The position numbers and the translations under genes are program-made. DNA of 62,468 bases, from assembly GCA_905477545.1 (NCBI GenBank), contig CAJQGN010000002.1:1-62468 (forward strand), given 5' to 3'. Shown here in pieces: positions 12,081-61,516 of the stretch (positions within the stretch are counted from its first letter, which is position 1; each line of letters begins with the position of its first letter). A model generated the notes under the pieces. That model saw nothing but the letters and a program-made list of their open reading frames with translations. It was not told where the DNA came from and searched no databases. This DNA comes from an uncultured Acidimicrobiales bacterium. GTDB taxonomy: Bacteria; Actinomycetota; Acidimicrobiia; Acidimicrobiales; Poriferisodalaceae.

Positions 12081-12101
12081 TAGTCTGCTGGTTCTGCAGC
12101 T

Positions 12102-12125: not shown

Positions 12126-12132
12126 AACCACG

Positions 12133-12222: not shown

Positions 12223-12309
12223 ACTGATGACTCTAGCGAGATTGAAGCAAAGCCGAACAAGATCTATTCCACAATCTTGCACTAGCTGCAGTACCTTACG
12301 CCTAGCCTC

Positions 12310-14160: not shown

Positions 14161-14163
14161 CGA

Positions 14164-15408
14164 ATGGCAGCATTAACTTGGACCGTTGACGAACTCTGTA
14201 CGTCTATTTCAGTAGGGCTTCAGAACGTTTTCCCAGAAGAAATCTGGCTCAGGGGACAAATCGTTGGGTTAACACGCTCACAAGCTGGGCACCTATATTT
14301 TGATTTGATTGAGCCAGAAGCAACGAATCGTAAAGCCAACAGCAAAATGTCGATCGTTGCGTTTAAGGGCCAACTGAACGGTATTGAATCAGTTCTAAAG
14401 AAGTTAGGAAACCTTACTCTTGAGGATGGAATTGAGGTACGTATTCGAGGACGTGTCAGCTACTACGCGCCGCAAGGCCGAATCCAATTCATCATGTCCG
14501 CAGTCGATCCTCAGTATACCCTCGGACACTTGGCAGCAGAAAGAGATCAGGTTCTTCGAACCCTGGCATCTGAAGGTCTATTAGAGCTTAATAAGAGCCT
14601 TACTCTTCCATTGCTTCCGCTTCGGATCGGCTTGGTCACCTCAGATGGCAGCGCAGCATATAACGACTTTACTAATGAGCTTCTTACTAGCCGCTACCCT
14701 TTTCAAATTTTTCTCGTTGATGCGAGAGTCCAGGGGTCAGAGGCTGAATCAGCAATAGTTAATGCCCTTAAAACCATTGCTCATGCGGAAGTTGATGTCA
14801 TTGCTGTGGTGCGAGGCGGGGGTGCCAAAACTGATCTACTTGCCTTTGATCTCGAAAGTGTAGCCAGAGCTGTTGCTAACTGCCCTAAACCAGTTTTTGC
14901 GGGAATAGGGCACGAGATTGATCGCTCAATAACTGATGAGGTTGCTCACACTTCAGTGAAAACTCCCACAGCATGTGCAGTAGCCCTTATCGAACAAGTT
15001 GGCAATTTTGAGGTTTTTCTTGACCGCTTAAGCTCCTCTATAGCTAACAAAGCTCAACAACGCCTTGCTCGGGCTAATGAAACGCTCGAGAACAGCGGTA
15101 GTCAAATTGCGAAGGCCCGAACAGTTATACATTCGCAAGATGTTCGGTTAGCTGAATTCTCAACCGATCTAACCCGATTTTCTAATCGCGCATTAGAACA
15201 AGCCAGAAAACGAGTTCAAGCCGCCGCTGATCTTCAACGAGCTTTCCATCCTCTTCAAGTTCTTCGTCGCGGTTTCTCAATCACACGTGACCAAAATGGC
15301 TTAATTCTGACGGATGAGGCACCTCTCGGTACTCAAATCATCACCGAAACTTTTGGTGCCACAATTTCAAGTCAAGTTATAACAAGTTCTCGAAAGGAGA
15401 CCCAGTGA
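14164..15408 (+). CDS. xseA: exodeoxyribonuclease VII large subunit
   Basis: 414 aa with an N-terminal OB-fold region and VRGGGAKTDLLAFD. It overlaps xseB by 4 nt. Confidence 0.9.
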   Translation: MAALTWTVDELCTSISVGLQNVFPEEIWLRGQIVGLTRSQAGHLYFDLIEPEATNRKANSKMSIVAFKGQLNGIESVLKKLGNLTLEDGIEVRIRGRVSYYAPQGRIQFIMSAVDPQYTLGHLAAERDQVLRTLASEGLLELNKSLTLPLLPLRIGLVTSDGSAAYNDFTNELLTSRYPFQIFLVDARVQGSEAESAIVNALKTIAHAEVDVIAVVRGGGAKTDLLAFDLESVARAVANCPKPVFAGIGHEIDRSITDEVAHTSVKTPTACAVALIEQVGNFEVFLDRLSSSIANKAQQRLARANETLENSGSQIAKARTVIHSQDVRLAEFSTDLTRFSNRALEQARKRVQAAADLQRAFHPLQVLRRGFSITRDQNGLILTDEAPLGTQIITETFGATISSQVITSSRKETQ

Positions 15409-22918: not shown

Positions 22919-23608
22919 GTGCAGCAATTACCAACTGGGACTCAATTAGTTCGTGGAGAAGCCTGGGCGATCGGTCTCACTTACTTCACAGTGGCTATAA
23001 CAGTCTCAATTGTTCATCGCACCGCTGGGACTGATCCATGGTTGATTGTCGCAGCTGCTCTAATAGTAAATTCCGCGACAGCCACATTAGCCTTTGCATC
23101 AGCCACCGCTTCGGGAGGAAGCGCTGTGACTGGGGTTCTTAGCTCTTGGATAGTTAGCACTAGATTTGGTTTGCTTGCCGCTACTATTGCTCCCCGTCTC
23201 TGGTCATCACGTAAAAAAAGACTTTTCGCCGCTTATAGTTGCTTTGACCCTAACGTGGCTCTCGCTCTTCGTGAAGAAGAAGATAGCAACCTGCGACGCG
23301 TATACGTTTCGTTGTCACTATGGCTCATAATACCTTGGTGGGTAGGTTCCGTTGTCGGCGTCTTCGTCGGCAATATTATTTCTAATCCTCTAGCGCTCGG
23401 CCTAGACGTCATGTTCCCAGCTTTATTTGTTGCACTATTATGGCGGCAGTTAGACCACGGGCTTAGTAAATTAGTCGGATTAGCTGGGGCTGCAGTCGCT
23501 CTTGGGACCGTGGAATTCGTTCCCGGTGGCCTGCCGATCCTCTTAGCAGCTTTCACTGCCCTACTTGGACTCCGCAAAAAAAACACTCCTCCCAACGAGC
23601 TCCATTAA
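22919..23608 (+). CDS. azlC: AzlC-family branched-chain amino acid exporter subunit
   Basis: 229-aa polytopic membrane ORF followed after 5 nt by a 101-aa AzlD-sized membrane ORF. The call rests on size, topology and pairing. Confidence 0.6.
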   Translation: MQQLPTGTQLVRGEAWAIGLTYFTVAITVSIVHRTAGTDPWLIVAAALIVNSATATLAFASATASGGSAVTGVLSSWIVSTRFGLLAATIAPRLWSSRKKRLFAAYSCFDPNVALALREEEDSNLRRVYVSLSLWLIIPWWVGSVVGVFVGNIISNPLALGLDVMFPALFVALLWRQLDHGLSKLVGLAGAAVALGTVEFVPGGLPILLAAFTALLGLRKKNTPPNELH

Positions 23609-39000: not shown

Positions 39001-39020
39001 CGAACTATCGTATGGCAAAA

Positions 39021-39170
39021 TTACTGTTCCAAATTAATTGCCCAAGACACAACTTCATCAGGATCACTTCGATCTTCAGCTAATTGATGCAACGAAGATT
39101 CCACCCTGGCAAGTAAGAGCTCAATTTCATCTAAATCAGATTCGGTAAGATGACTCTGATCATTGCGCAT
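39021..39170 (-). CDS. possible 49-aa acidic helical protein
   Basis: ATG...TAA ORF found by hand, below the track cutoff: MRNDQSHLTESDLDEIELLLARVESSLHQLAEDRSDPDEVVSWAINLEQ. No obvious SD. Confidence 0.25.
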   Translation of the reverse strand: MRNDQSHLTESDLDEIELLLARVESSLHQLAEDRSDPDEVVSWAINLEQ

Positions 39171-39322
39171 GGTTAAAGTTTATAGCGTTTTGTGTCTAGC
39201 TGCAGCCATATGAGGATATCGACTGTCACTTACCAAAAGCTTTGCGACTAGCCTTCTCTCCACTTTCATATACTCAAAATTCACAGGCAACTCACGCCCG
39301 TCTACTTAAACCCAATCGAAAC

Positions 39323-40690
39323 ATGACCATGAACGTACAAGAACCAAAACCACGCATCTCACTCATGGTTTTCACGAGAGACCTAAGAATCACAGATAAT
39401 CCAGCCTTATCTGCTTCACTAAAAAACACTAAAACATATTGTCTTTTTGTATTTGACGACAGTCTTATCTCAGGTTCACGCCCTCCCTTAAACAGACTAA
39501 AATTTCTTAAGGATTCGCTTCAAGATCTCGCTCTAAGCCTCAAATCTATTGGGGGAGAGTTGATTATTGCTAGTGGTAAGTGGGCAGATACAGTCCTTGA
39601 TGTTGCTAAAAAAATCCATGCTTCAGAAATCAACATCGCAGATGACTACAGCACCTATGCCACCAATCGGATTACTAATCTTGAGAATTATTGCGCTGCA
39701 AATAAAATCACCTTGAACAAACATCCCGGAATATCTATCGTCGAACCAGGGGTTCTAGCTCCGACGGCAGGTTCTGAATATAAAATTTTCACGCCATATT
39801 TTCGTAAATGGATAAACGCCTCATGGCGACGCCAAGCGGTTTTGCCTAAAACAATCGAATTTGGGAAGACCGACCACCAATTCTCTCTTTCTCAAAAGAG
39901 TAAAGATCTTCTTTCAATCAGTTCTTCGGGTTATGGCGGAGAAACTAGTGGTAGCGAAAAGATGAATCAATGGTTGAGTAGGTCTTCAAATGCCTATAAC
40001 AGCACTAAGGATGTTCCTTACCTCGATAGCACTTCTCACCTCTCCGCATTTTTACATTTTGGTTGCATCTCACCGTTGAACTTGGCTATCCAAGCCCAAT
40101 CGTTCCCGGAAACTGAAAATTTTGTACGTCAGCTATGTTGGCGAGATTTTTTTCTTCAAATTCTCGCTGTCAGGCCTGATGCATCAATAAACGACTACAG
40201 AAATCGTAATGATATTTGGGCAAAAGACCCAGAATCATTTATCGCTTGGAAAGAAGGAAAGACTGGATTTCCGCTAGTTGATGCTGGAATGCGTCAACTA
40301 AAAGCTGAAGGATTTATGCACAACCGAACTCGAATGGTAACTGCTTCTTTTTTAGTAAAGGACCTATATCTAGATTGGCGAGTAGGAGCAAGTCATTTCA
40401 TGGAACATCTCATAGATGGCGATATAGCTAATAACCAACTCGGCTGGCAATGGGTTGCAGGCACTGGAACAGATTCTAACCCACATAGAATTCTTAACCC
40501 AATTCGCCAAAGCGAACGCTTTGATCCTTCGGGCTCATACATTCAAAAATGGGTTCCCGAGCTTTCAGGGCTAACACCTAAAACTATTCATGACCCTCCC
40601 TTGGTCATAAGACAACAATGTGGATATCCAGAACAAATTGTCAATCATCACGACGCCGTAGAATTATTCCGGAATAGAAGAGCAAGATAA
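39323..40690 (+). CDS. phr: deoxyribodipyrimidine photolyase / cryptochrome family protein
   Basis: N-terminal photolyase fold (VFTRDLRITDNPAL). FAD-binding C-terminal motifs: WRDFF, GFMHNRTRMVTASFLVKDL, DGDIANNQLGWQWVAGTG, RILNPIRQSERFDP. Start set at the ATG at 39323. Confidence 0.88.
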   Translation: MTMNVQEPKPRISLMVFTRDLRITDNPALSASLKNTKTYCLFVFDDSLISGSRPPLNRLKFLKDSLQDLALSLKSIGGELIIASGKWADTVLDVAKKIHASEINIADDYSTYATNRITNLENYCAANKITLNKHPGISIVEPGVLAPTAGSEYKIFTPYFRKWINASWRRQAVLPKTIEFGKTDHQFSLSQKSKDLLSISSSGYGGETSGSEKMNQWLSRSSNAYNSTKDVPYLDSTSHLSAFLHFGCISPLNLAIQAQSFPETENFVRQLCWRDFFLQILAVRPDASINDYRNRNDIWAKDPESFIAWKEGKTGFPLVDAGMRQLKAEGFMHNRTRMVTASFLVKDLYLDWRVGASHFMEHLIDGDIANNQLGWQWVAGTGTDSNPHRILNPIRQSERFDPSGSYIQKWVPELSGLTPKTIHDPPLVIRQQCGYPEQIVNHHDAVELFRNRRAR

Positions 40691-40746
40691 TTGCAACGAT
40701 TAGGATACAAAAGTCTAAATGGTGCAAAGATAGGTATCTTCGTTGT

Positions 40747-41778
40747 ATGCCATCTTTAGCGCATACTTCGATCGGGCGAGCGCGACTTCGACGCCGAATA
40801 GTTACTATCCCCGGAGTATTTTTGGTAACTGCACTTCTTTTACTTTTACTGGTACCAGTTTTAGTAATTGGTGGACTTATTGATATCTGCTACCGCAGAC
40901 CACTTTCTACAGTTCGCTTAATTCTTTTTACTCTTTGGTGGCTACTTGTTGAAAGCTTTGGGCTCATAGCCGGTTTCATTCTTTGGGGGTATTTTCGTCC
41001 TGGTAAAAGACTCGCCAATCAACGTTCCATCCAGGCACATACTGTTGTACAACGAATCTGGATTAAAGCGTTAGTGACGGCTGCACGCTTATTCCTTGGC
41101 CTAAAGATCAAAGTAGAAGGAGACTCCTTAGAAAATAAAGTAGGTCCTTTCATAATTCTGGCACGCCATGGAAGCCAAGGAGATGCATTGCTTATCGCTG
41201 CGATGCTCGGACGTTTAAAAATTCGCCCTCGTGTAATTCTGAAAAAAGAACTTTTACAAGACCCCTGTTTTGACGTATTCGGCAATCGCCTGCGTAATTA
41301 CTTTGTTGATCGTGACACAGTCGACAATTTCGAAGAAGTTGCATCGATAGGACAGTTAGCAGCTGAAATGAACCCCGATGAAGCCACTCTTATATTTCCT
41401 GAAGGTACGCGCTTCTCATTACCAAAATTAAAGAAATCTATAGCCTCTCTACAAGCAACTGCTCCGTCACGAGTCAAGTCAGCAAAAAATTTACGCTCTG
41501 TTCTCCCAATTAGAAGCCCGGGCATCCTAGCAATACTAAAAAACGCCCCCGAAGCGAACCTGATTTTTATAAATCACGTTGGCGTCAGTCAATTCCGTTC
41601 GATAAAAGATATATGGCGTAACACGCCACTACCAACCGACCTTCACTTCAACATCACATTTCTTCCTAGAAATGAAGCACCAGATAGCGCTTCCCAGGAC
41701 GAACTGATTAAGTTCATTGATTCAAGATGGGAAGAGATCGACGATTGGGTAGTTACAAATCAACAGGCCTTGAGCTGA
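40747..41778 (+). CDS. membrane-anchored lysophospholipid (PlsC-family) acyltransferase
   Basis: 343 aa. Two N-terminal TM helices, HX4D motif HGSQGD and FPEGTR. Confidence 0.75.
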   Translation: MPSLAHTSIGRARLRRRIVTIPGVFLVTALLLLLLVPVLVIGGLIDICYRRPLSTVRLILFTLWWLLVESFGLIAGFILWGYFRPGKRLANQRSIQAHTVVQRIWIKALVTAARLFLGLKIKVEGDSLENKVGPFIILARHGSQGDALLIAAMLGRLKIRPRVILKKELLQDPCFDVFGNRLRNYFVDRDTVDNFEEVASIGQLAAEMNPDEATLIFPEGTRFSLPKLKKSIASLQATAPSRVKSAKNLRSVLPIRSPGILAILKNAPEANLIFINHVGVSQFRSIKDIWRNTPLPTDLHFNITFLPRNEAPDSASQDELIKFIDSRWEEIDDWVVTNQQALS

Positions 41779-42643
41779 TTTTTGTTCTAAACGGGAAGAG
41801 CACAGGAGTGGAAGCTTTATATCGTTCGTATTCCAAATCGCCTTTCCATCTTCGATCAGCTTTTTTTTCTAACATTGGTATACCACTTATCTTGGTCAAA
41901 AGTAGCCACACGAATAGTGGGGAAACTAAAGTTACAAAACTCCATCCAGAAAGAGCCGGGATAGCGATTATGGCTACGCCTGTCCACAAGAGAATTTCAC
42001 CTAAATAATTAGGGTGACGAGAAATCGCCCACAGACCAGACGATATAAAACGATCTTTGTTCTCTTCTTGGCTCCTAAATTTACGTTTGGCTTCATCAGA
42101 AATTACTTCGACTGAGAAGCCGAGAACCCATACTAGAAGACCTAAAAACCCAATTAAACCAAAATTTTTGTCATCTGCAGAAGTAATTGCGGCCAACGCT
42201 GCTGACGCCGTAACTAGAACCCATAATCCCTGAACAGTCCAGGTAAATAAGAACCAAGCAAACTTATGTTTCATGACGTTGAATCTAGAATCTGAACCTT
42301 GACGCTTCACCCTCAAGACAAGGAACGAACCTAGTCGTAATGCCCAGGTGATAACGATGATTGCTAAGATGACTGATCGAGTGCCTACGTTTTTTGAAAA
42401 TAGGAGAGCTATGGATATGACAGTTACATAAGTAATTGAGCCTGTTAAGTCAAAAAAATGCTCTGTGTGTTTTAACCATGCTGCAACGAAACCAACCCAT
42501 TGAACTCCATAGGCAACTATCCCACACAATAAGAAAACTGAGATAGCGCTATCAGAGCCGATGCTTGCACTCACCGCTACAGAAAGTACCGTCCCTAAAA
42601 TAACCGATATTAAAATTCCGAATACGGCTTGGTTTGTTTTCAT
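41753..42643 (-). CDS. DUF1295 / steroid-5-alpha-reductase-like membrane protein
   Basis: 296-aa polytopic ORF with C-terminal WAISRHPNYLGE. ATGA overlap with the upstream SDR gene. Confidence 0.75.
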   Translation of the reverse strand: MKTNQAVFGILISVILGTVLSVAVSASIGSDSAISVFLLCGIVAYGVQWVGFVAAWLKHTEHFFDLTGSITYVTVISIALLFSKNVGTRSVILAIIVITWALRLGSFLVLRVKRQGSDSRFNVMKHKFAWFLFTWTVQGLWVLVTASAALAAITSADDKNFGLIGFLGLLVWVLGFSVEVISDEAKRKFRSQEENKDRFISSGLWAISRHPNYLGEILLWTGVAIIAIPALSGWSFVTLVSPLFVWLLLTKISGIPMLEKKADRRWKGDLEYERYKASTPVLFPFRTKISSRPVDL

Positions 42644-44169
42644 TGGATATTTCTCCGCTTTTCAGCTGCCGAAAGCTCTTCGGCTAATGCCACTATGCGA
42701 TCTAGCATCTTTTTAAAGATTAGAGTGTGCGGTGGAACCAATGCATACCAATAAAGACGCCCTAATAAACCACGAGGTACGAACAAGGCTCGCTGAATAA
42801 TTTCTGCACCATTTTCATTTTCTACTACTTGCCACTCCAACCATGCATGGCCCGGGTTTCTCATTTCACCAAGTAGCCGCAAAGAATGCGAGTTAACGGT
42901 CACCACCTTAAAAAAGTCGACGGTGTCGCCTACTCGTAAATCCGTAGGGTGCCGACGTCCACGTCTTATCCCAACTCCACCAAGAATCTTGTCGATAAAA
43001 CCGCGCAAATTCCAAAGCCAGTTAAAGGCAAACCATCCATTATCTCCCCCAACAGTTCGAAGTACCGCCATCAAATCTGCGCACCTAGCATTTGTGACCT
43101 GAGTTCTCTGATCGCTAAGAACACGTCCGCCAGACCATGCAGGGTCACTCAAAGCCGGCATTGCGGGGCCGGTTAGAGTAGAGATTTGTTTACCACCAGA
43201 AGCATTTGTCCATCGAGTAGGCATCTCAAGATCTCGGACTCTCGCTAATGCCCGATTTATTGATTGATTTAGATTAAATGAGGTAGATCGCCCTTTGTTT
43301 CGAATATCTCTATTTCCAACGACAACATCACTGGTTAATGAATCTATAAGTGATCGCGCTAGCCGAATCGGAAGAGGACTTACAAGGTTTACCCAGTGAG
43401 AAGATAAGCGCGGGGTCAAAACTGGAACTGCGATAATCAAACGACGGCGTAAGCCCGCAACCTCCGCGTACACGTCCATCATCTGTCGATATGTAAGAAC
43501 TTCAGGGCCACCAATCTCAAATACCTCACCAATTACTTCTTCATCACCGAGCACCCCTACAAGATGACTAAGTACGTCTTCAATTGCTATCGGTTGACAG
43601 CGTGTTCGAGATACCCATCTCGGGACAACCATTACCGGGAGCACCTCGACCAAAGAGCGAAGCATTTCAAATGACGCACTTCCAGAGCCAATAATAACTG
43701 CAGCACGTAATTCTGTAACTGGTGTAATTCCAGAAGCAAGTATTTCACCGACAGCGTGACGGCTTGCTAAATGAGCTGAATGAGTTTCATTATCATGGCC
43801 GAGGCCACCCAAGTAGATGATTTGCTCAAGCCCAGCATCGTCAGCGCATTTGACAAATATTTCTGCCATCTCGCTTTCCAGAGTTTCAAAAGAGCCGGAA
43901 GATGACATCGAATGAACTAGGTAGTACGCAGCCTGCGCACCTTCAAGAACTTGATTCACTTCAGAAGCGACAGAAAGATCTGCCTCCACTACTTCGACTC
44001 TCTCTCGCCACGGACGGTCATCTAAAGCCGCCGAGCTTCGCGTTGTGCATCTAACTCTGTAACCAGCTTCTAAAAGTTCCGGGACCAATCGACCACCAAC
44101 GTAACCAGTAACGCCCGTAACAACCACTGTCCCAATATCTGACTGTTCAGCAACATTGCTCTCACCCAT
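42640..44169 (-). CDS. NAD(P)H-binding SDR-type protein with C-terminal DUF2867-like domain
   Basis: 509 aa. Rossmann VVTGVTGYVGGRL, then a C-terminal lipid-binding-like extension of about 170 aa. 8-nt overlap with the upstream gene. Confidence 0.7.
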   Translation of the reverse strand: MGESNVAEQSDIGTVVVTGVTGYVGGRLVPELLEAGYRVRCTTRSSAALDDRPWRERVEVVEADLSVASEVNQVLEGAQAAYYLVHSMSSSGSFETLESEMAEIFVKCADDAGLEQIIYLGGLGHDNETHSAHLASRHAVGEILASGITPVTELRAAVIIGSGSASFEMLRSLVEVLPVMVVPRWVSRTRCQPIAIEDVLSHLVGVLGDEEVIGEVFEIGGPEVLTYRQMMDVYAEVAGLRRRLIIAVPVLTPRLSSHWVNLVSPLPIRLARSLIDSLTSDVVVGNRDIRNKGRSTSFNLNQSINRALARVRDLEMPTRWTNASGGKQISTLTGPAMPALSDPAWSGGRVLSDQRTQVTNARCADLMAVLRTVGGDNGWFAFNWLWNLRGFIDKILGGVGIRRGRRHPTDLRVGDTVDFFKVVTVNSHSLRLLGEMRNPGHAWLEWQVVENENGAEIIQRALFVPRGLLGRLYWYALVPPHTLIFKKMLDRIVALAEELSAAEKRRNIQ

Positions 44170-45058
44170 GCGAACCTGCTAGTTCTTCAGCAGCGGAATC
44201 AAGATTTGGATGCTCGAAAATGAAGCCCGATTCGGTCAGCGCGTCAGGTTTAACTCGCGCGCTCGCTAGCAGCAAACCGTCAGCCATTTCCCCTAGCAAC
44301 AACCTCAGCGCTAATGAAGGAGCTACGAGAAAAGATGGCCGTCTCATTTGTTTTCCAAAAATTCTGACAAATGACTTATTCGTTACAGGCTCCGGGGCAA
44401 CAAGATTTACCGCACCCTCAAGTTCTGAATCAAGCAAATGCAACAAAGCACGAATTTCGTCTTCCAAGCTTATCCATGACCACCATTGCTTGCCGGAACC
44501 TAATGGTCCTCCGACAAAAAATTTAAGCGTTTGCAATATTTTCGGCAGAGCACCGCCCAGCGGTGTACACACTATTCCTGTTCTTGCTATCACTAACCGG
44601 GTCTTCGGACTTGCAATAACGCTCGCTTCAAGCTCCCATTTTTTGCAGACCTCTGACAAAAATCCCGATCCACTAACAGAATTTTCTGAGAGAATCTCAT
44701 CACCTCGATTCCCATAGAAACCGATCGCAGAAGATGACACAACTACCTTCGGAGGGTTATCTAATTCTGAAATCTTGTCTGCTAGCAGAGAAGTTCCTAA
44801 AACTCGGCTGTTAAGAATCCGCTCTTTCTTTCCTTTGCTCCAACGGCCTTCGATGCTTTCACCTGCAAGGTGCACTAAACCGTCCAAACCTTCTAAATCG
44901 CTTGCATCTAAAACAGCTGTAGCCGGATCCCATTCAATATCGGCATCTTTGTTCGGACCGCGGCCTATACGAAGAACAGAATCTCCTCTTTCCTCGAGAG
45001 CTTTCGCCAATGCCGAACCAATCAGCCCTGATGCTCCAGTAATCGCATATTTAGCCAT
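44162..45058 (-). CDS. TIGR01777-family epimerase-like protein (YfcH-like, DUF1731 C-terminus)
   Basis: 298 aa with Rossmann ITGASGLIGSAL. 8-nt overlap (ATGGCTAA) with the regulator gene. Confidence 0.75.
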   Translation of the reverse strand: MAKYAITGASGLIGSALAKALEERGDSVLRIGRGPNKDADIEWDPATAVLDASDLEGLDGLVHLAGESIEGRWSKGKKERILNSRVLGTSLLADKISELDNPPKVVVSSSAIGFYGNRGDEILSENSVSGSGFLSEVCKKWELEASVIASPKTRLVIARTGIVCTPLGGALPKILQTLKFFVGGPLGSGKQWWSWISLEDEIRALLHLLDSELEGAVNLVAPEPVTNKSFVRIFGKQMRRPSFLVAPSLALRLLLGEMADGLLLASARVKPDALTESGFIFEHPNLDSAAEELAGSHG

Positions 45059-45875
45059 CAGCTAACCTTTCTATAAGATCTAGACCCAATCTAAAATCGG
45101 ACATTATGTGGTCTGCCCCAACTGATTCAGCTGTCAAACCGAACAGTCCTGAACCACCCACTACCAATGGGACATTTATATTTTCACGCCTCAGGGATTC
45201 AGTTACATCGCGCAGCCCCTCTAATGAGCCGGCGGTCGAAACTGATAATGCTACCGCAACCAGGCGGTCCGCATCTAAACAAACTTCAACAAACGATACC
45301 GGAGGAGTATTCGAACCAAGGTCGTGCACGTCGAATTTACGGCCTCTAAGCAATAAAGCCAACACGCTTGTAACTAGTCCATGTTCTTCCGTCGGTGGAC
45401 AACCCACTATTACCAGCCCGCGCTTACGGCCACGGACTGCTGAGGTGGCCTGTAGACGTCCAAGTAGTGATGGCACAATAGCTGAAGCACGATGTTCAGC
45501 AGCTATAGAAAAGGTTCCTTCTGCCCATCCCCTACCTATTGATCCCATCGCTGGGAATAGTAAATCAATACAAAAATCTTCGACATCGCAACCTGCAGCT
45601 CTGACAGACTCAGCTATCTTCCACACTCCTTCTTGGTCACCATTAATTAAACAATTCATTAATGGCTCGATCCGTGTCGACAGATCTCGATTGCCGCGTC
45701 CGACTGCAGCGGGCGCTTTATTTTTCAGTTTCTCTAATTCTTCCTTTTCAATTACCCAAGTTCCATTTTCTTTACTCGCTAGTAACATTCCCGTTCGCAC
45801 ATAGCGGTAAATAGTCATGTAGTGGAGATCTAGGATTTCAGCAGCCTCGTGAAGCGTGCACGTTTGACTGTTCAC
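45051..45875 (-). CDS. HTH (excisionase/MerR-type) + cobalamin-binding domain regulator, CarH/LitR-like
   Basis: 274 aa. N-terminal HTH LHEAAEILDLHYMTIYRYVRTG, helical-bundle motif W-x9-EH (GWAEGTFSIAAEH), and B12-binding Rossmann PPTEEHGLV...VHDLGSNTP. Confidence 0.75.
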   Translation of the reverse strand: MNSQTCTLHEAAEILDLHYMTIYRYVRTGMLLASKENGTWVIEKEELEKLKNKAPAAVGRGNRDLSTRIEPLMNCLINGDQEGVWKIAESVRAAGCDVEDFCIDLLFPAMGSIGRGWAEGTFSIAAEHRASAIVPSLLGRLQATSAVRGRKRGLVIVGCPPTEEHGLVTSVLALLLRGRKFDVHDLGSNTPPVSFVEVCLDADRLVAVALSVSTAGSLEGLRDVTESLRRENINVPLVVGGSGLFGLTAESVGADHIMSDFRLGLDLIERLADG

Positions 45876-45893
45876 TTATTGACCTTAGTTATT

Positions 45894-48854
45894 CTATTCA
45901 TCGTCAGAAACCGCCGAAATACTTTGAGGTGACAAACGTTCCATCATCGAAACTCGACGATCTTGCATCTCACGCCATGTCAGAGTCTTGACTTCATCAC
46001 GCACACCAACCGCCCGCCGTAAAGACACATCTGAAATATCTTTCGCTTCGACGGAAAACCCTATTTCCGTTGCTACACGAACACCATTCCGACCAAAAAA
46101 ACCCATCGCTATTTGAGAAAATTCGGCTAAGAGGTCCATATCTGGGTCAAGCTCTTGAACCACTGATGAAAGATAGGCAAAATTCTTTACGAAAAGCATC
46201 AGTTCTTTAGGAATTCGAGCTCCATGAGACAACAAGCCTCGAACCAGATTCCTGAACTCTGCAACAAATTCTTCCTCAGTAAGTTCTAACGGATCAAAGT
46301 CATCACGATCTAATTGGAACTCACTTATCAACAGCCCTATGTCAGTGTCAGAAGAAAAGGCTCCCAAATCACGAATCCCAGATACTTGAGCCTCCAAGTC
46401 GCCAGTCATTAGGCCAACAACATATCGCAGAAACGCGATTCGCCTTTCTCCATCAAGACGACCGGTTATACCAAAATCGACTAGTCCTACTTCTCCCTCG
46501 GTCCCTAGGAAAACATTTCCAGCATGAAAATCACCATGGAATATTCCATGAATCACAGCACCCTCAAGTAAACCATCCACCATTTGTCGAAAGATTCGCC
46601 GCACATCCACTGGTTCTATTGATAACGAGCTGAGATCTCCAAGCGGAACTCCGCTGACGCGACTCATTACAATTACCCGATCGGACACTAACTCTAGGTA
46701 TGGATCTGGCAGTTCCCAGCTATTTCGCGCGTTCGATTTTAAGGCTCGCCCAGTCTCAAACAAATTTGCCACTTCGAGTCGAAAATCTAACTCTTCACAG
46801 ATCGTCTCTGCAAACAGCTCAACTAATGCCGGCGGATTAGCCAAGGCGGCGACTGGTAACTTACCAACTAACCGGGGGGCGACCCACGCCATAACACGTA
46901 AGTCACTTGTAACCCGACGACGAATTTTAGACCGTTGGATTTTCACAACGACTGGTGTTCCATCTAATAATTGCGCCAAATGTACTTGCGCTATCGAAGC
47001 CGCAGCAATTGGAACACTCTCTACATTAAGAAAATTATTTTTTAACGGACCCAGGTCATTAACAAGTATTTTCTTTGCCTTTAACCAAGGTTCAGGGCTA
47101 ACTTGGTCCCGACATTTCCGACATTCTTCTACGAGCGCTTCTGGAAAAACTCCTTCAGCTGCCGAAATCAACTGCGCGAGCTTGACATAAGCAGGACCTT
47201 GTTTCTCACCAGCTCGAATAAGCCGCCTATAAAGAGATGCTCGGTTATCTAGATCATTTAATTTTCGGTCACAAACCTTCCATAAAATAACTGCTTTCCC
47301 AAAACGAAAAGCAGTCGTTATCAATCGCCCCAATGGAGGAAACTTTGGGCTCCTAATTAATTGTGGTATCGACGATCGAACTGAATCCCTAATAGTTGAA
47401 GCAGCACGTATCCATTCATCTTCGGGACTAGTAGAAACATCTCCAAAAACTTCCTCATTAGAAATATCAACAGCTTTAAAGGAAGAATCAATGCGAGGCT
47501 CATCACCTTTCTTAAAATTTTCCTCTATAGCAATATGTAATTCCGCAGGCCCCCAGATGCCCATTGACAGTGGCTTCCAGATAACCGGAGAAGTTAAACG
47601 AAAAGCGGGAACGAGCTCAACGAATGCAGTTAACGCCTCCTGTAACTCAGCTCGAGCTAAGGATGCGCCAAGACAATGATGTGCTCCTGCACCAAAAGCT
47701 AAATGCGGGCACCCCTTTGTTCTAGCAATATTAAACTCGTACCCATCATCCTCGGTCGATTCCGATAATCCTGCGGCATGAAGACCAAGCAAAACTGTTG
47801 TACCAGCTGGGAACCGAATACCATCGACCACTATGTCCCGTGCGGCTAATCTAGCCGTCGTCCGAACTGCACTGATGTAACGCAGCGACTCTTCAACTGC
47901 TGATGGAATAAGCGACGGATCCTCTCTCAGAGCCTCGTATTGATCGGGATGATCAGCTAAGACTGCAATCATTGCGCCTAGTTGGTTTCTAGTGGTATCT
48001 GTACCAGCAAGCAATATTGCTTGAACCATTGCAATGAGCTCATCGCTCGTTAACCGATCTTCCTCCTCTTTCCCTCGAATGAGTTCACTCAAAAGATCGT
48101 TCGTCGGTTCCTTGGACCTCTTTTCGATTAGCTCAAAGACATAAGCATCAAGTTCAGATTGAGCTTGTACAACGTCGTCCAAACGATCAATAACTGCCTC
48201 AGTATCAGCATCTAAAGCAGAAAAAATTATGTCCGCCCAATTATCGAACAGTCTCCAGTCAGCATCATCAACTCCAAGTAGTCGGCAGATTATTGGCACC
48301 GGATATGGTCGGCAGAACTCACTTACTAGTTCACCACTACCACGGTCACACATCGTTGAAATCAATGACTGTGCATGCGATTTCATAAAGGGACGCAGAT
48401 CTCTCGCCCCACCCATAGTAAAAGAACCGTTAACTAATTGACGCAAGCGGCGATGATCTTTACCTTCAACAGAAAGAACGTTTGGTCTTATTTTGAACGA
48501 ACTTGGCGCCTCAGGAACAGACAGCTGAGATCGGGACACAAACTCATTAAAGTCCGTCGACAATGAATCCATTTCTTCCAACATTGAAACGCCAGATAGA
48601 ACCGATATCCAATTGGGGTCTCTAAGAATGGACTTAACCTGTTTGAATCCTAGGACTAGGGGCCCCGCAGGGGTCGAGACCACCCAACCCGCCTCGGCAG
48701 CAAGTTTTTTACTTGCGGCGACAATTTCACCAAAATTTTGCGGCGAAATATTAACAAATGAAAGAGCCCCAGGATCATTTACATCAACTACATCTATCTG
48801 ATCAAAAGCCGAACCTATCTCATCCGCCATAGTTCTCAGACTCCTCAAAAACAT
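45894..48854 (-). CDS. cytochrome P450 fused to ABC1/UbiB/ADCK-type atypical kinase
   Basis: Uninterrupted 986-aa ORF. P450 half: LLAGTDTT (I-helix), EESLRY (ExxR), FGAGAHHCLGASLA (Cys ligand loop). ABC1 half: PIAAASIAQVHLAQLLDGTPVVVKIQR, DFRLEVANL, HGDFHAGNVF, LVDFG. Confidence 0.8.
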   Translation of the reverse strand: MFLRSLRTMADEIGSAFDQIDVVDVNDPGALSFVNISPQNFGEIVAASKKLAAEAGWVVSTPAGPLVLGFKQVKSILRDPNWISVLSGVSMLEEMDSLSTDFNEFVSRSQLSVPEAPSSFKIRPNVLSVEGKDHRRLRQLVNGSFTMGGARDLRPFMKSHAQSLISTMCDRGSGELVSEFCRPYPVPIICRLLGVDDADWRLFDNWADIIFSALDADTEAVIDRLDDVVQAQSELDAYVFELIEKRSKEPTNDLLSELIRGKEEEDRLTSDELIAMVQAILLAGTDTTRNQLGAMIAVLADHPDQYEALREDPSLIPSAVEESLRYISAVRTTARLAARDIVVDGIRFPAGTTVLLGLHAAGLSESTEDDGYEFNIARTKGCPHLAFGAGAHHCLGASLARAELQEALTAFVELVPAFRLTSPVIWKPLSMGIWGPAELHIAIEENFKKGDEPRIDSSFKAVDISNEEVFGDVSTSPEDEWIRAASTIRDSVRSSIPQLIRSPKFPPLGRLITTAFRFGKAVILWKVCDRKLNDLDNRASLYRRLIRAGEKQGPAYVKLAQLISAAEGVFPEALVEECRKCRDQVSPEPWLKAKKILVNDLGPLKNNFLNVESVPIAAASIAQVHLAQLLDGTPVVVKIQRSKIRRRVTSDLRVMAWVAPRLVGKLPVAALANPPALVELFAETICEELDFRLEVANLFETGRALKSNARNSWELPDPYLELVSDRVIVMSRVSGVPLGDLSSLSIEPVDVRRIFRQMVDGLLEGAVIHGIFHGDFHAGNVFLGTEGEVGLVDFGITGRLDGERRIAFLRYVVGLMTGDLEAQVSGIRDLGAFSSDTDIGLLISEFQLDRDDFDPLELTEEEFVAEFRNLVRGLLSHGARIPKELMLFVKNFAYLSSVVQELDPDMDLLAEFSQIAMGFFGRNGVRVATEIGFSVEAKDISDVSLRRAVGVRDEVKTLTWREMQDRRVSMMERLSPQSISAVSDDE

Positions 48855-48942
48855 TGATCTACATTTACGCCGTTTTTATTGTTCAACACCAGACACCAAG
48901 CTGCGATAAACTTGATGAAATAGTGTTTAACAACCAAGCAAT

Positions 48943-48958
48943 TATTTAGTGCTAAATA
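48943..48958. promoter_or_regulatory. perfect 7-2-7 palindrome, candidate operator
   Basis: TATTTAG-TG-CTAAATA in the 139-nt gap upstream of the P450-ABC1 gene. The surrounding sequence is AT-rich, so a chance occurrence is plausible. Confidence 0.2.
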
Positions 48959-48993
48959 TACAGGTATTTCCCTATTCCGACAGATTCAAGCGG

Positions 48994-50280
48994 TTAAACC
49001 TTATTTAAAATTGTTTCAGCGGCGCGACGGCCAGAGACCAACGCCCCTTGGATAGAAGGAGTGTCTCGATGATCACCACACACAAAACAATTATCTGAAA
49101 TTTCAAGTCGTCGTCGAAAAGGTCTACCTGGTTCGAACAATGGTTGACTATGGGCAATAGCGAAAGTCTTTAAATGGCGCCATTCATCTACGCATTCTCC
49201 AAACCACCGATGCATTTGACTGAGGACCTCACCTTCGGTGACGTCATTGTTTCCTGGCATAGCCGCAACGATCAACGCCTCTGTTCCTGTCGCGTAACTT
49301 GACGCTACGTTCGACAAAATAGCCATATTCCTTACTGGCCCCTGACCGTCTCCTGCAAGGAAAATAGCACTGTCTTTTGAGGGCGCCGCAGGAGCCGAGA
49401 AATACATGCATCTTTGAGAACGTGAATAAACAGTTTCGATTCCTAGAAGTTGCGATGCGCTAGGGCCATCGGTTGCCACAATTAACTGAGCCGGTTGAAA
49501 CTTCAGTCCGTTCTTAAGAAAAACGTCTCGACCCGCTATCGACTCAACCGGTGAATTCAACATAAGGCTATCTTCAGGTAAACGCTGAGACATTTGCTTC
49601 GGTATTTCACCCATTCCTCGACTTGGCAACGCAGCACTGCCACGAAACAAACAACCAAGAATATAAAACCCAAGCCGAGCCGATCCCTCAAGCCGAGGCG
49701 TTAACTGAATGCCAGAAAGAAGCGGAAAGAAAAAACTCCCAATTGCCTCTCGCGAAAAACCGAACTCTTGAAGCGCTAGCTCCATCGAAATATCAGACTT
49801 AGGTTCCCAAGACTTGCTTAATAAAATTCGCAACTTCAATAGTCTTAGCTTGTCCTTAGTCTTTAAGGAGCGAGAGAGCGCAGCTGGAAAAACAGCCAAA
49901 GGTCTTTTCGCTGGATCTATTAAACGACTTAATTTATCTTCTTTCACCAGCACGGCACCAGACTCGAAATAACACAGATCCAGTGCATCTAGATCAACAT
50001 GTCGCTCAAGCTCTGGGTAAGCAGTCAACAGAACTTGAAATCCGCGGTCAAAAAGAAATTCTCCATGAACATCAGTACGAACCCGACCGCCCACTTCACC
50101 AGCTGCTTCGATAACTAGGACTTCTCTCTTATTTGCTTTAAGAAAAGAAGCTGCCGCTAAGCCGGCTAGGCCCGCCCCAACTATTAGCGTTTCAGGGCTA
50201 GAGCTATTTTTTGGCTCTCGATGAATACTCACAGTCAAAGGCTTACCTGCAAAAAACTTGGCTGTCGAAAACAAACTCAA
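48994..50280 (-). CDS. NAD(P)/FAD-dependent oxidoreductase (amine-oxidase / CrtI-like fold)
   Basis: 428 aa. Dinucleotide motif LIVGAGLAGLAAA followed by VLVIEA...VGGR. The TTG start is uncertain. Confidence 0.75.
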   Translation of the reverse strand: MSLFSTAKFFAGKPLTVSIHREPKNSSSPETLIVGAGLAGLAAASFLKANKREVLVIEAAGEVGGRVRTDVHGEFLFDRGFQVLLTAYPELERHVDLDALDLCYFESGAVLVKEDKLSRLIDPAKRPLAVFPAALSRSLKTKDKLRLLKLRILLSKSWEPKSDISMELALQEFGFSREAIGSFFFPLLSGIQLTPRLEGSARLGFYILGCLFRGSAALPSRGMGEIPKQMSQRLPEDSLMLNSPVESIAGRDVFLKNGLKFQPAQLIVATDGPSASQLLGIETVYSRSQRCMYFSAPAAPSKDSAIFLAGDGQGPVRNMAILSNVASSYATGTEALIVAAMPGNNDVTEGEVLSQMHRWFGECVDEWRHLKTFAIAHSQPLFEPGRPFRRRLEISDNCFVCGDHRDTPSIQGALVSGRRAAETILNKV

Positions 50281-58863: not shown

Positions 58864-59547
58864 CTATGGGATTAGATAAACGACGGCAAAAATTACGATC
58901 CAAACAATATCTACAAAATGCCAGTAGAGACCAATTATCTCTACTGTCTCAGCACGCTCAGCACCAATGTTACCCCGGCTTATAAGTGACCAAAGGGTTA
59001 CTAGCATTATGATGCCGAGTGATACGTGCACACCGTGAAAGCCAGTGAGCGTGAAAAAGGCAGACGACGAGATATTCGTCGTGAAGCCGAGCCCCTCACG
59101 GTAAAATCCCGTGAACTCGTATACCTGACCGGCTATGAACACTGTCCCTAATATGGCAGTGGTGAGCAGCCACATTTTGCAACGCTCTAACTCACCTCTA
59201 CCTATTGAGGTAACTGCTAACACCATTGTCAGTGAACTCATCAAAAGAACAAACGAACTGACTGACGTAAACGGGATATCGAACAGATCTGCAGCGGTGG
59301 AGCCTTCGGTATCCGGACCAACACGATTACGAAGCAAAAGATATGTTGATATCAGTGACGCAAACAATAGACAATCAGAGCCTAGGAAAGCCCACATCGT
59401 CATTTTTTCGTTACTGAGCCCCGTGGTAAGAGGGGGCACATCGTAGTCATCCCATTCAGTCGGACCATATGCCAACTGTGAGGTCTTGACCTCAGTTGCA
59501 TTATCCAACGGGAGCCTCCTCCGTGCTTTCATCTTTTGGTAAATCAA
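58864..59547 (-). CDS. ctaE: cytochrome c oxidase subunit III
   Basis: 227 aa. WAFLGSDCLLFASLISTYL and FHGVHVSLG motifs. The start (59547 or 59532) overlaps the end of ctaD. Confidence 0.85.
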   Translation of the reverse strand: MIYQKMKARRRLPLDNATEVKTSQLAYGPTEWDDYDVPPLTTGLSNEKMTMWAFLGSDCLLFASLISTYLLLRNRVGPDTEGSTAADLFDIPFTSVSSFVLLMSSLTMVLAVTSIGRGELERCKMWLLTTAILGTVFIAGQVYEFTGFYREGLGFTTNISSSAFFTLTGFHGVHVSLGIIMLVTLWSLISRGNIGAERAETVEIIGLYWHFVDIVWIVIFAVVYLIP

Positions 59548-61516
59548 TTAAATTTTCTGACTGGTCACCATCAGGCTCATCATGGTCATCGCCATGTCCA
59601 TGACCTGCATCTGGATCAGTATGTGGTTCCAAACTCCAGCCATATATGGCTGCTACCAGAACTAAAAGCCCAATGCCAGTTAACCAAAGAGTGTAAATGA
59701 GCCCTAAAGCTATTAAAGGAAGCCCAGAAGCTAACACAATCGGCCAGTAAGACGGAGACGGCAGGTGAGGATGTTGATCACCTAGTTGCGCAATCGCGTT
59801 ACCATCGGCCACTTTGCGAAGTTTACCGTTCTCATCTTTTTGGTATTTTTTATGCCAAAAGTCGTCTACATCAGTTACCACTGGCACGTAGTCAAAGTTG
59901 TGTTCTGGCGTTGGTGAAGGAATTGCCCATTCTAGAGTTCTCCCATCCCAAGGATCAGCTGGAGATTGCTCGATTGTTCCGGCTTTATAACCAAGCCAAG
60001 TCTTAACGATGTTTATAGCGAAGACAATCATTCCAATTAAGATGACGAACGCTCCAATTGAAACCATCAAGTTCCAGAAATCAAAACCATCTTCTGGTCC
60101 ATATCTACTATGTCGCCTTGCCATTCCTTGTAAGCCCAAAATATGCATTGGCCCGAAGGTCAAATTAAAGCCGACTAGAACGATCCAGAAATGCCATTTG
60201 CCTAGAGTGTCGTTCAGTTTGTATCCGAACGCCTTTGGCCACCAGTAGTACATTCCAGCGAACAGCCCCATTAGAGCGCCACCAAATAGTACGTAGTGAA
60301 AGTGAGCGACAATGAAATAGGTATCAGTTTGCTGTGTGTCCGCTGGCGCCACCGAATGCATCACGCCCGACAAGCCGCCAATAGTAAACATAGACACTAG
60401 CGATATTGAGAACATCATCGGAACGGTGAAAGTGATTTTGCCGCCCCACATTGTGGCTATCCAGTTCAAAATCTTAACACCTGTCGGAACTGCGATAAAC
60501 ATGGTAGTTGCCGAGAATGCTGCAACGCTCACTGGTCCAAGCCCGGATACGAACATATGGTGAGCCCATACGCCCCAGCCCATAAATCCAATTGCGGCTC
60601 CAGATATAACAATCACCGAGTAACCAAAGAGCGGTTTCCGACTAAATACTGGGAGCGTCTCAGAAACGATACCAAATGATGGGAGTATCAAAATATAGAC
60701 TTCCGGATGCCCGAATATCCAAAATAGATGCTGCCAGAGAAGCGGATCAGCTCCCATGCCGACATTGAAGAAGTTGGCGTCAAATGTTCTGTCCATAGAC
60801 AAAAGCACCAGAGCGACAGTTATGACAGGTAATGCAAATAGTAACAAAAACTGAACTACCAAAATCATCCAGGTAAAGACCGGCATACGAAGAAGGGTCA
60901 TTCCGGGAGCACGCATATTAATAATTGTGACAATCAGGTTTATCGCCCCAACTAGCGATGCAATACCAGCTATTTGTAGACCCAACGCATAAAAATCCAT
61001 TCCTGCGCCAGGGCTAAACGTCACACTGGTATTTGGAGCGTACGCAAACCAACCGCCGTCTGGCCCACCACCAAGAAACCAGCTTAAGTTGAGAAAAATG
61101 CCACCGAAAACAAAAATCCAAAGTCCCAGGGCATTCATCCGTGGAAACGCTACGTCACGGGCACCAATTTGGAGAGGGACAATGTAGTTGGCAAACGCAG
61201 CTGCAAGTGGCATAACCACTAGAAACACCATTGTGGTGCCATGCATTGTAAAGATTTGGTTGTATTGCTCAGCGGTTAAAACTGTTCCATCTGGAGTTAA
61301 AAGTTGGCTTCGTATTAGGAGCGCTTCGATACCACCCCAAAAAAACCAAAACATCGCGACTGCGCCGTACATTATTCCAATTTTTTTATGATCAACGGTA
61401 AAAACCCAAGCCCTCCAACCTTTTGCATTCGTTGGTCGAGCAAACGCGCCGGTAGAAGGCTTTGTCTCACCACTCTCAATTTCGAGGATTAGAGGAGGTT
61501 CCTCTGTAATCGCCAT
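59501..61516 (-). CDS. ctaD: cytochrome c oxidase subunit I (extended, about 14-TM form)
   Basis: 671 aa with WIFGHPEVYILILP and the HHMF region. It has two extra C-terminal TM helices and an acidic/His-rich tail. Confidence 0.95.
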   Translation of the reverse strand: MAITEEPPLILEIESGETKPSTGAFARPTNAKGWRAWVFTVDHKKIGIMYGAVAMFWFFWGGIEALLIRSQLLTPDGTVLTAEQYNQIFTMHGTTMVFLVVMPLAAAFANYIVPLQIGARDVAFPRMNALGLWIFVFGGIFLNLSWFLGGGPDGGWFAYAPNTSVTFSPGAGMDFYALGLQIAGIASLVGAINLIVTIINMRAPGMTLLRMPVFTWMILVVQFLLLFALPVITVALVLLSMDRTFDANFFNVGMGADPLLWQHLFWIFGHPEVYILILPSFGIVSETLPVFSRKPLFGYSVIVISGAAIGFMGWGVWAHHMFVSGLGPVSVAAFSATTMFIAVPTGVKILNWIATMWGGKITFTVPMMFSISLVSMFTIGGLSGVMHSVAPADTQQTDTYFIVAHFHYVLFGGALMGLFAGMYYWWPKAFGYKLNDTLGKWHFWIVLVGFNLTFGPMHILGLQGMARRHSRYGPEDGFDFWNLMVSIGAFVILIGMIVFAINIVKTWLGYKAGTIEQSPADPWDGRTLEWAIPSPTPEHNFDYVPVVTDVDDFWHKKYQKDENGKLRKVADGNAIAQLGDQHPHLPSPSYWPIVLASGLPLIALGLIYTLWLTGIGLLVLVAAIYGWSLEPHTDPDAGHGHGDDHDEPDGDQSENLIDLPKDESTEEAPVG

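Follow-up and report, generated by a model that had tools for sequence, protein, structure and literature searches.

The question raised by this 62,468-nucleotide stretch of DNA from an uncultured bacterium of the Acidimicrobiales (contig CAJQGN010000002.1, assembly GCA_905477545.1, hereafter the window) is whether eight adjacent genes, encoding a photolyase, a PlsC-type acyltransferase and six minus-strand proteins that include a B12-binding regulator, form a light-controlled unit, and what chemistry such a unit might serve. We propose, with a probability of about 0.6 for the model as a whole, that the locus contains a light-responsive marine operon under an adenosylcobalamin (AdoCbl) photoreceptor-repressor, predicted to act at the palindrome ATTTAGTGCTAAAT, and that its products most likely act on a hydrophobic isoprenoid, quinone or lipid of the membrane. 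B12 photoreceptors are best known from CarH and LitR, and the HTH_17 regulator family to which this protein belongs differs from them in its DNA-binding domain. An earlier note on this DNA had described the eight genes as a candidate light or photo-oxidative-stress module for lipid modification. The genes, their strands, their domain assignments and the overlaps of 8 nt (regulator/TIGR01777), 8 nt (TIGR01777/SDR-DUF2867) and 4 nt (SDR-DUF2867/DUF1295) in the open reading frame (ORF) coordinates were all reproduced by an ORF map and by Pfam and NCBIfam searches. In this hidden Markov model check, the DUF1295, DUF2867, TIGR01777 and amine-oxidase assignments hold, the TIGR01777 protein scoring above its NCBIfam cut-off. 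The P450::ABC1 fusion is real, with both domains in one 986-aa ORF, and the reported absence of an extracytoplasmic function (ECF) sigma factor also stands, with no sigma factor of any kind found across the 62 kb in Pfam scans of ORFs of at least 120 aa.

The regulator points to light as the signal. Its B12 part consists of PF02607 (1.3e-11), a four-helix bundle, followed by PF02310 (3e-11), the Rossmann B12-binding domain, and its sequence contains GRGW-x9-EH and PPTEEH. In pairwise BLASTP comparison, W117, E127-H128 and H165 align to W131, E141-H142 and H177 of TtCarH, which are described as the key AdoCbl-binding signature of light-responsive B12 domains (PMC11796333). All four residues are invariant across eight family members with identities down to 37%, and the GxxW element of the published signature is present as well. 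When an AlphaFold (AF2) model of the regulator (pLDDT, the predicted local distance difference test, 84.5) is compared with the PDB by Foldseek, the top matches are photocobilin, CarH over its full length and the B12 domain of CtMerR, with TM values of 0.66-0.69 against the photocobilin and CtMerR B12 domains. The earlier identification of a B12 photoreceptor-type regulator is thus borne out by both the CarH signature residues and the structural matches and, judged from these comparisons, the regulator is a carrier of a CarH-type B12 photoreceptor module.

The DNA-binding domain is assigned by Pfam to HTH_17 (PF12728), not to MerR, and the N-terminus gave no sequence alignment to TtCarH's DNA-binding domain; more distant matches with PF13411 share just the B12 part with the regulator. 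A family scan with one genome per species gave at least 586 confirmed loci, mostly from Acidimicrobiia and other Actinomycetota, with Dormibacterota in addition; the best 80, aligning over both domains, were inspected. Database-mining papers already record light-type B12 domains fused to helix-turn-helix domains, HTH_17 combinations among them, and no characterisation of the HTH_17 B12 regulator family, its operator or its regulon was found in the literature searched.

A candidate operator of the HTH_17 B12 regulators, a 14-bp palindrome, is newly recognised here. In the window it is present as TATTTAGCACTAAATA in the gap between the flavoprotein and P450::ABC1 genes, and it is kept in the syntenic locus L008; the diverged locus L091 shows TATTTAGTGCTAAAC at the equivalent position. 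It was the comparison with L091 that revealed the operator, since 12-mers common to the upstream regions of the photolyase, P450::ABC1 and flavoprotein genes proved to be chance matches only. When all fetched loci were searched with ATTTAGNNCTAAA, the matches were nearly confined to regulator loci, and their central dinucleotide was invariably YR, giving the family consensus ATTTAGYRCTAAAT. The 83 regulator loci (1.23 Mb in total, 67% GC on average) contain 53 exact strand-hits of the ATTTAGYRCTAAAT type, where shuffles give 0.05; sites that depart from it at one position at most number 45. No site with at most one mismatch occurs in 79 SDR-DUF2867 loci without the regulator (785 kb, 61% GC), and none was found 5' of P450::ABC1 genes located away from the regulator. 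The site at 48944-48957 is the sole perfect candidate operator in the 62 kb; the next-best site in the window, AGTTAGCACTAGAT (two mismatches, 23152-23165), falls within a gene of the AzlC family and probably arose by chance.

The operator occupies the same place in relatives whose regulators are 37-47% identical to that of the window. It is exact in L008 and has one mismatch each in L091, L176 and L178, lying 11-12 nt ahead of the P450::ABC1 start in L091 and L176 and preceding a fasciclin gene followed by P450::ABC1 in L178. Across the family, 18 loci have it 50-130 nt 5' of the regulator gene, and 6 have it where the regulator and an ECF sigma gene diverge. In 6 loci it stands in front of an unknown gene located upstream of the regulator, in 4 it separates an SDR (short-chain dehydrogenase/reductase) gene from a divergent flavoprotein-DUF1365-CMAS unit, and in 2 it precedes ABC1 genes; the stand-alone ABC1 gene of L025 lies behind a one-mismatch operator. 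Operators are paired at a distance of 16-17 bp in L041 (9481-9510), L091 (14338-14368) and L176 (17320-17349), and such pairs may reflect a higher-order oligomer that binds two palindromes. A predicted operator of 14 bp would allow the light regulon to be read straight from genomes, and could also provide a compact new part for optogenetics.

Gene contexts were sampled from loci anchored on the regulator and on SDR-DUF2867, and comprise five arrangement types, A to E, which are written here with op for the operator, a slash for the boundary of two convergent arms and SDR for SDR-DUF2867. Type A is found in the window and in L008 (Acidimicrobiaceae FRAM18_bin006), whose synteny with the window extends over 20 kb with proteins 85-96% identical, and reads flavoprotein, op, P450::ABC1-regulator-TIGR01777-SDR-DUF1295 / plsC-photolyase. 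Type B (L091, L176) reads flavoprotein-op-P450::ABC1-regulator-SDR-DUF1295 / plsC-photolyase-sigma-nitrobindin-like-SOD, where SOD is superoxide dismutase, and type C (L010, L011, L178) reads flavoprotein-op-fasciclin-P450::ABC1-regulator-SDR-DUF1295 / plsC-PNPOx-photolyase. The remaining types are D (L005, L173), with fasciclin-heliorhodopsin-regulator-SDR-DUF1295 / PNPOx-photolyase, and E (L174, L177; 39% GC), with SDR-DUF1295-flavoprotein / PNPOx-photolyase-DCC1-P450::ABC1. Homologues of P450::ABC1 and of the regulator are annotated as belonging to metagenome-assembled genomes of marine Acidimicrobiales or Acidimicrobiaceae, and the window was assigned to a marine member of the Acidimicrobiaceae.

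SDR-DUF2867, DUF1295 and the photolyase occur together in all five types, and the photolyase converges on the operon in each; the flavoprotein, P450::ABC1 and the regulator are each present in four types and plsC in three. TIGR01777 lies within the operon in type A only. The families stay co-located through five gene orders at 45-73% protein identity, the figure for SDR-DUF2867 of type B being 59-61%. Because it is conserved in diverged relatives, the arrangement is more than chance. Co-localisation in related genomes, which had been suggested as a check on the module, is therefore found for the gene set across diverged marine Acidimicrobiia, with the qualifications that TIGR01777 is lineage-specific and that a nearby cupin gene, also named in the earlier note, is absent.

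Individual links recur as well. P450::ABC1 adjoins the regulator in types A to C, with 4-nt overlaps in L091 and L176. All relatives with the module, and also the two unrelated metagenome loci L115 and L139, have DUF1295 directly 3' of SDR-DUF2867. SDR-DUF2867 lies downstream of the regulator in eight loci (L005, L010, L011, L037, L091, L173, L176 and L178) and directly upstream of it in L057. TIGR01777 directly follows the regulator, or a regulator-photolyase pair, behind an operator in L049, L065, L070 and L074. The plsC-photolyase pairing is seen in L008, L010, L011, L091, L176, L178 and L064, and the pair stands behind an operator in L176 and L064. Independent links of the regulator, besides these to TIGR01777 and those to SDR-DUF2867 in L037 and L057, are found to the photolyase in L053 and L074, and to plsC-photolyase in L064, where an operator is followed by genes for an ECF sigma factor, a ZAS/RskA anti-sigma factor, plsC, photolyase and AlkZ.

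Several of these relatives have features of their own. The minus-strand run of type B (L176 13858-15894; L091 counterpart 12043-14368) encodes, in order, Fe/Mn superoxide dismutase, a THAP4/nitrobindin-like haem protein, a group-3 sigma factor, photolyase and plsC, and a perfect operator lies upstream of the superoxide dismutase gene in L176 (15934-15947); an operator ahead of this run would tie the regulator directly to oxidative-stress genes. In type D, a heliorhodopsin gene is immediately 5' of, and co-directional with, regulator-SDR-DUF2867-DUF1295 (L005 2546-4239, L173 7276-8969), and a weak operator-like site (2-3 mismatches) lies farther upstream, ahead of the fasciclin gene. Enrichment of DUF1295, photolyases and cobalamin-binding proteins has been described for heliorhodopsin neighbourhoods, whose proposed role is in the remodelling of lipids. 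In the interval between fasciclin and P450::ABC1, type C loci contain a G+C-rich inverted repeat, CCCCCCGGGG ... CCCCGGGGGG (L010 ~60-160, L011 ~745-830), which is possibly a terminator or attenuator within the predicted operon.

A number of observations weigh against a light-controlled operon of this kind. The GxxH element of the published signature is TxxH (TEEH) in the regulator. The CarH operator consists of 11-bp direct repeats, whereas the candidate operator is a single 14-bp palindrome, so that the oligomeric mechanism may differ from that of CarH. A scan for sigma-70 consensus promoters gave nothing above chance, with counts no higher than in shuffles. The enzymes of type E are kept with no regulator or operator nearby, SDR-DUF2867 stands alone in two sampled relatives and is often solitary, and P450::ABC1 stands alone in four relatives (L001-L004). 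Finally, no operator with up to three mismatches is found in the window 5' of the photolyase/acyltransferase pair or of the flavoprotein gene. Because these genes are without an upstream operator, the regulated unit is probably one of five genes, not eight, comprising P450::ABC1, the regulator, TIGR01777, SDR-DUF2867 and DUF1295. The eight-gene light module of the earlier note is thereby reduced to a predicted five-gene unit behind the operator, and the flavoprotein, photolyase and acyltransferase genes, which would fall outside it here, are conserved companions of the operon genes in marine Acidimicrobiia.

From the computed gene content, signature residues, operator statistics and synteny we infer repression, a response to light and a class of substrate. 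In the dark, the regulator would bind ATTTAGTGCTAAAT as an AdoCbl-dependent oligomer, and the bound protein would block P450::ABC1, its own gene, TIGR01777, SDR-DUF2867 and DUF1295. On illumination, the Co-C bond would be broken by photolysis, the repressor would leave the DNA and the five genes would be induced. Light control of the operon is well supported by comparison alone, and the operon is probably switched on by light. Under photo-oxidative stress, the most likely task of its products would be the oxidation, reduction or re-acylation of some hydrophobic isoprenoid, quinone or lipid of the membrane.

The domains and folds of the enzymes bear on what that substrate might be. The P450 part of the fusion (PF00067, 95 bits) has its I-helix motif in AGTDT283, its ExxR motif in ESLR322 and its haem-thiolate loop in FGAGAHHCLG387-396, and the ABC1 part has HGDFHAGN773, DFG793 and KLAQ, a variant of KxGQ. 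No transmembrane or hydrophobic segment was found in P450::ABC1, which is predicted to be soluble. Its 246 bits fall below the UbiB (TIGR01982) equivalog cut-off of 487.55, and a C-terminal membrane anchor was not found; because of this score it is classed as a member of the ABC1 superfamily only, and not as a UbiB equivalog. ABC1/UbiB proteins are linked to prenylquinone metabolism. Both domains are present in about 95 of the matches found for the fusion, mostly from marine Acidimicrobiales and also from Ca. Poriferisodalis, and no paper on a P450::ABC1 fusion was found in the literature searched. The TIGR01777 protein is a member of its family by score (302.7 bits against a cut-off of 207.35; DUF1731 1.8e-17), and was rejected as a ThyD equivalog (245 against a cut-off of 400).

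For the SDR part of SDR-DUF2867, the closest PDB entry in both sequence and fold is NDUFA9, the 39-kDa subunit of complex I; in the model of the DUF2867 part, a beta-sheet precedes a long helix at the C-terminus, a secondary structure that hints at a helix-grip-like fold. DUF1295 (191.3 bits against a gathering threshold of 20.4) has several hydrophobic segments and a weak PDB match to SRD5A2 (4.9e-5), consistent with a distant relative of steroid 5-alpha-reductases. The acyltransferase contains HGSQGD141 (HX4D) and FPEGTR217 and has two N-terminal transmembrane segments; PF01553 is matched at 46.9 bits against 23, and because the score is below the TIGR00530 cut-off its substrate is left undefined. 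The photolyase is likewise below the NCBIfam equivalog cut-offs. The flavoprotein belongs to the phytoene-desaturase/HpnE/protoporphyrinogen-oxidase superfamily, with orthologues of 44-49% identity in the module of L091, L176, L174 and L177; in L178 the corresponding place is taken by a gene of the same family.

Taken together, the NDUFA9-like SDR, the SRD5A2-like DUF1295 protein, the ABC1/UbiB part and the phytoene-desaturase-superfamily flavoprotein favour a hydrophobic substrate in or at the membrane, and an isoprenoid, quinone or lipid is the most likely candidate on the basis of these folds. A more specific proposal, which is possible but doubtful, is that the operon constitutes an undescribed light-induced pathway under a new class of HTH_17 B12 repressor. 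In this pathway of marine Actinomycetota, the P450::ABC1 fusion, the two atypical SDRs, the steroid-reductase-like membrane enzyme and the flavoprotein would repair or remodel menaquinone, or some other isoprenoid lipid of the membrane, after photodamage. The predicted regulon would tie DUF1295, SDR-DUF2867, TIGR01777/SDR39U1 and ABC1/UbiB fusions to light and photo-oxidative stress, and through it these families would also be connected with the gene set for furan fatty acids and with the neighbourhoods of heliorhodopsin. The families so linked are widespread and without an assigned function, and they occur in abundant marine bacteria, which provides testable hypotheses.

The comparison with known light regulons extends beyond the regulator itself. 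CarH of Thermus thermophilus and Myxococcus xanthus and class I LitR of Streptomyces and Bacillus have the same B12 module, with W-x9-EH, the lower-ligand His and a full-length fold match. As in the HTH_17 family, their regulator genes lie inside or beside the target operon, and the neighbours include photolyase, ECF sigma/anti-sigma and photoprotective genes; Streptomyces LitR is paired with the ECF sigma factor LitS (PMC11519972). Unlike these systems, the window has an HTH_17 domain in place of MerR, and its predicted targets are not carotenoid genes. Class II LitR of Pseudomonas (PplR1/PmlR1) controls a light-inducible cluster with phrB, SDR, FAD oxidoreductase, ufaM and unknown genes, and differs in that it acts via a LOV partner, not B12, and has a MerR-type DNA-binding domain (PMC9758184). 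Its cluster includes ufaM and lacks P450::ABC1, DUF1295 and DUF2867, whereas the window has no UfaM, UfaO or CMAS. Light also induces folE in the Pseudomonas LitR regulon; in L179 (8392-10464), SDR-DUF2867 directly follows the gene for GTP cyclohydrolase I (folE). In the blue-light response of V. cholerae, a MerR-like regulator and ChrR are both used.

A resemblance to the sigmaE-ChrR singlet-oxygen regulon of Rhodobacter sphaeroides had been pointed out in the earlier note. The window shares with that regulon photolyase, flavoprotein, SDR and membrane-protein genes, but it lacks both an ECF sigma factor and the anti-sigma domain of ChrR, and its cupin stands alone. Two proteins of the RSP1091-1087 operon, the flavoprotein UfaD (RSP1091) and the DUF1365 protein UfaO (RSP1090), are required for furan fatty acid synthesis (PMC7380195). 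In the 80 inspected loci of the regulator family, neighbours include an amine-oxidase flavoprotein (21), an adh_short SDR (20), CMAS (13), stand-alone ABC1 (11) and an ECF sigma factor (12) accompanied by a ZAS/RskA anti-sigma factor; photolyase is also among them. The partner of the relatives' ECF sigma factor is a zf-HC2/RskA anti-sigma factor, not ChrR. In L046, DUF1365 (7.5e-73) lies between the flavoprotein and CMAS, and in other Actinomycetota the regulator family and the operator stand beside a UfaD-position flavoprotein, DUF1365, CMAS and an SDR, the families of RSP1091-1087. Because these families adjoin the regulator elsewhere, the resemblance stands for a genuine connection of the one type of regulon with the other, although the window itself lacks the DUF1365, CMAS and ECF sigma genes.

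The window flavoprotein was considered as a UfaD orthologue and rejected; the relationship is at the level of the superfamily only, the best match being 26% over 275 aa (E 7e-8), and most other matches to UfaD-position proteins are confined to the N-terminal FAD-binding region. DUF1365 and CMAS were not found by Pfam scans in the window ORFs or in the module relatives of types A to E. The ChrR-type cupin that the earlier note had placed near the module is a genuine Cupin_7 gene, but its link to the module did not hold up. No anti-sigma domain was found in the 125-aa protein, the gene is absent from the related loci examined, and the best operator-like site 5' of it has three mismatches; because of the missing operator and the lack of conserved linkage, its membership in the module is unproven.

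Other functions for the locus must be weighed against an isoprenoid, quinone or lipid substrate. One is that the cluster modifies carotenoids or xanthophylls, through P450 hydroxylation, flavoprotein desaturation or ketolation and PlsC-type acylation, as in the CarH/LitR clusters of Thermus and Streptomyces. The flavoprotein is 32% identical (E 2e-56) to a Streptomyces atratus oxidoreductase encoded directly 3' of a MerR/B12 regulator, in a position that we take to be that of litQ, and this homologue, the regulator and an ECF sigma factor sit in a carotenoid cluster with lycopene cyclase and phytoene synthase. On pTT27 of Thermus HB8, a 44%-identical SDR-DUF2867 lies about 3 kb from ldrP-carH-crtB-phr, and within about 15 kb of carH are SDR-DUF2867, an FAD-dependent oxidoreductase, DUF4397, which recurs beside the actinobacterial regulator family as well, a P450, a lysophospholipid acyltransferase and a photolyase; this light cluster also has a glycosyltransferase. 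A GT4 glycosyltransferase is found 2 kb away in the window, and the co-directional heliorhodopsin genes of L005 and L173 fit the same idea. However, only SDR-DUF2867 and the photolyase are detectably homologous between the Thermus cluster, which is centred on carotenoid synthesis, and the window, where the Thermus P450, acyltransferase, glycosyltransferase, CrtB and CrtI have no tblastn match (E 1e-3). Genes for CrtB, CrtI, lycopene cyclase and rhodopsin are missing from the 62-kb window and from all relatives that have the module, and the ABC1/UbiB and NDUFA9-like parts suggest quinones, not pigments, so that a role in pigment modification is unlikely. It is very unlikely that the locus instead modifies acyl chains to furan or cyclopropane fatty acids as an equivalent of the R. 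sphaeroides sigmaE-ChrR core operon, despite the flavoprotein-DUF1365-CMAS and SDR genes flanked by the same regulator family and operator in other Actinomycetota and the PlsC-type acyltransferase and photolyase of the window. The superfamily-level match of the flavoprotein to UfaD-position proteins, the absence of DUF1365, CMAS/UfaM and ECF sigma from the window and from relatives of types A to E, and a Cupin_7 protein without an anti-sigma domain all argue against such an equivalence.

The signal and the linkage of the genes can be questioned in the same way. The regulator might sense cobalamin supply or redox state, not light, and the operon might then be a general stress or B12-linked unit: B12-binding domains have non-photosensory roles too, the NCBIfam matches of the regulator include corrinoid methyltransferase proteins, and SDR-DUF2867 on Streptomycetaceae plasmids is found among SigB-type stress genes, not light genes. 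This seems quite unlikely given that a cap motif specific to B12 domains that respond to light, Wx9EH, is kept without change throughout the family, that the best structural matches are photoreceptors and that the recurring neighbours are photolyase, heliorhodopsin, superoxide dismutase and a singlet-oxygen-type gene set. The solitary P450::ABC1 and SDR-DUF2867 genes of some relatives, and the lineage-specific presence of TIGR01777 in the operon, would also be expected if the adjacency were a by-product of a compact genome and the eight genes functionally unlinked. That explanation is disfavoured as highly improbable, as it does not account for co-location in five gene orders, one of them without the regulator, for the start/stop overlaps that are kept, or for the conserved position of the operator. 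A light-responsive operon behind the 14-bp operator thus remains the reading that we prefer, and the features of the locus are listed in Table 1.

Table 1. Features of the predicted light-responsive locus and its surroundings, in window coordinates
Feature	Position	Strand	Evidence or location
Photolyase/cryptochrome family protein, class-I type	39323..40690 (alternative start 39242)	+	FAD_binding_7 3.6e-69, DNA_photolyase (Pfam)
Membrane PlsC-family acyltransferase	40747..41778	+	PF01553 3e-12
DUF1295 (PF06966) polytopic membrane protein, steroid 5-alpha-reductase/ICMT-like	41753..42643	-	Pfam 2.4e-56
NDUFA9-like SDR fused to DUF2867, 509 aa	42640..44169	-	DUF2867 1.6e-31, N-terminal NAD_binding_10/NmrA
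TIGR01777/DUF1731 atypical SDR (SDR39U1/ThyD-like)	44162..45058	-	NCBIfam 302.7 bits
HTH_17 + B12-binding regulator, 274 aa, predicted AdoCbl photoreceptor-repressor	45051..45875	-	HTH_17, B12-binding_2, B12-binding (Pfam)
P450::ABC1 (UbiB-family) fusion, single 986-aa ORF	45894..48854	-	p450 6e-27, ABC1 1.2e-46
Candidate operator, perfect 14-bp palindrome ATTTAGTGCTAAAT	48944..48957	.	Flavoprotein–P450::ABC1 gap
FAD amine-oxidase/phytoene-desaturase-superfamily flavoprotein	48994..50280	-	Amino_oxidase 4.7e-33
Stand-alone ChrR-type cupin (Cupin_7), 125 aa	34636..35013	-	Pfam 9e-25

The P450::ABC1 stop and the regulator start are 18 nt apart, the gap between the flavoprotein and P450::ABC1 is 139 nt, and that between the photolyase and the acyltransferase is 56 nt; the latter two genes are probably co-transcribed. 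The acyltransferase and DUF1295 genes are convergent, with 3' ends that overlap by 26 nt (41753-41778), and this overlap again measures 26 nt in L008, against 21 nt in L091. For P450::ABC1, the ATG at 48830, preceded by GAGGAG, is the likelier start, and the flavoprotein may instead start from a GTG that lies in frame at 50232.

The remaining genes of the window are housekeeping genes, and Pfam scans found no carotenoid, rhodopsin, CMAS or DUF1365 genes among its ORFs. A terminator scan of the window was not above shuffles, and Rfam detected no riboswitch in it, only signal recognition particle (SRP) RNA and tRNAs; the small bacterial SRP RNA (11385-11483) lies beside tRNA-Ser genes and is ordinary. 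A 49-codon ORF, MRNDQSHLTESDLDEIELLLARVESSLHQLAEDRSDPDEVVSWAINLEQ (39010-39182, minus strand), is divergent from the photolyase gene, and the upstream region that the two share is near-identical in L008, with the adjoining intergenic DNA diverged. At 59501-61516 (minus strand), a cytochrome c oxidase subunit I ORF of 671 aa has a C-terminal match to the Cyt_c_ox_IV family.

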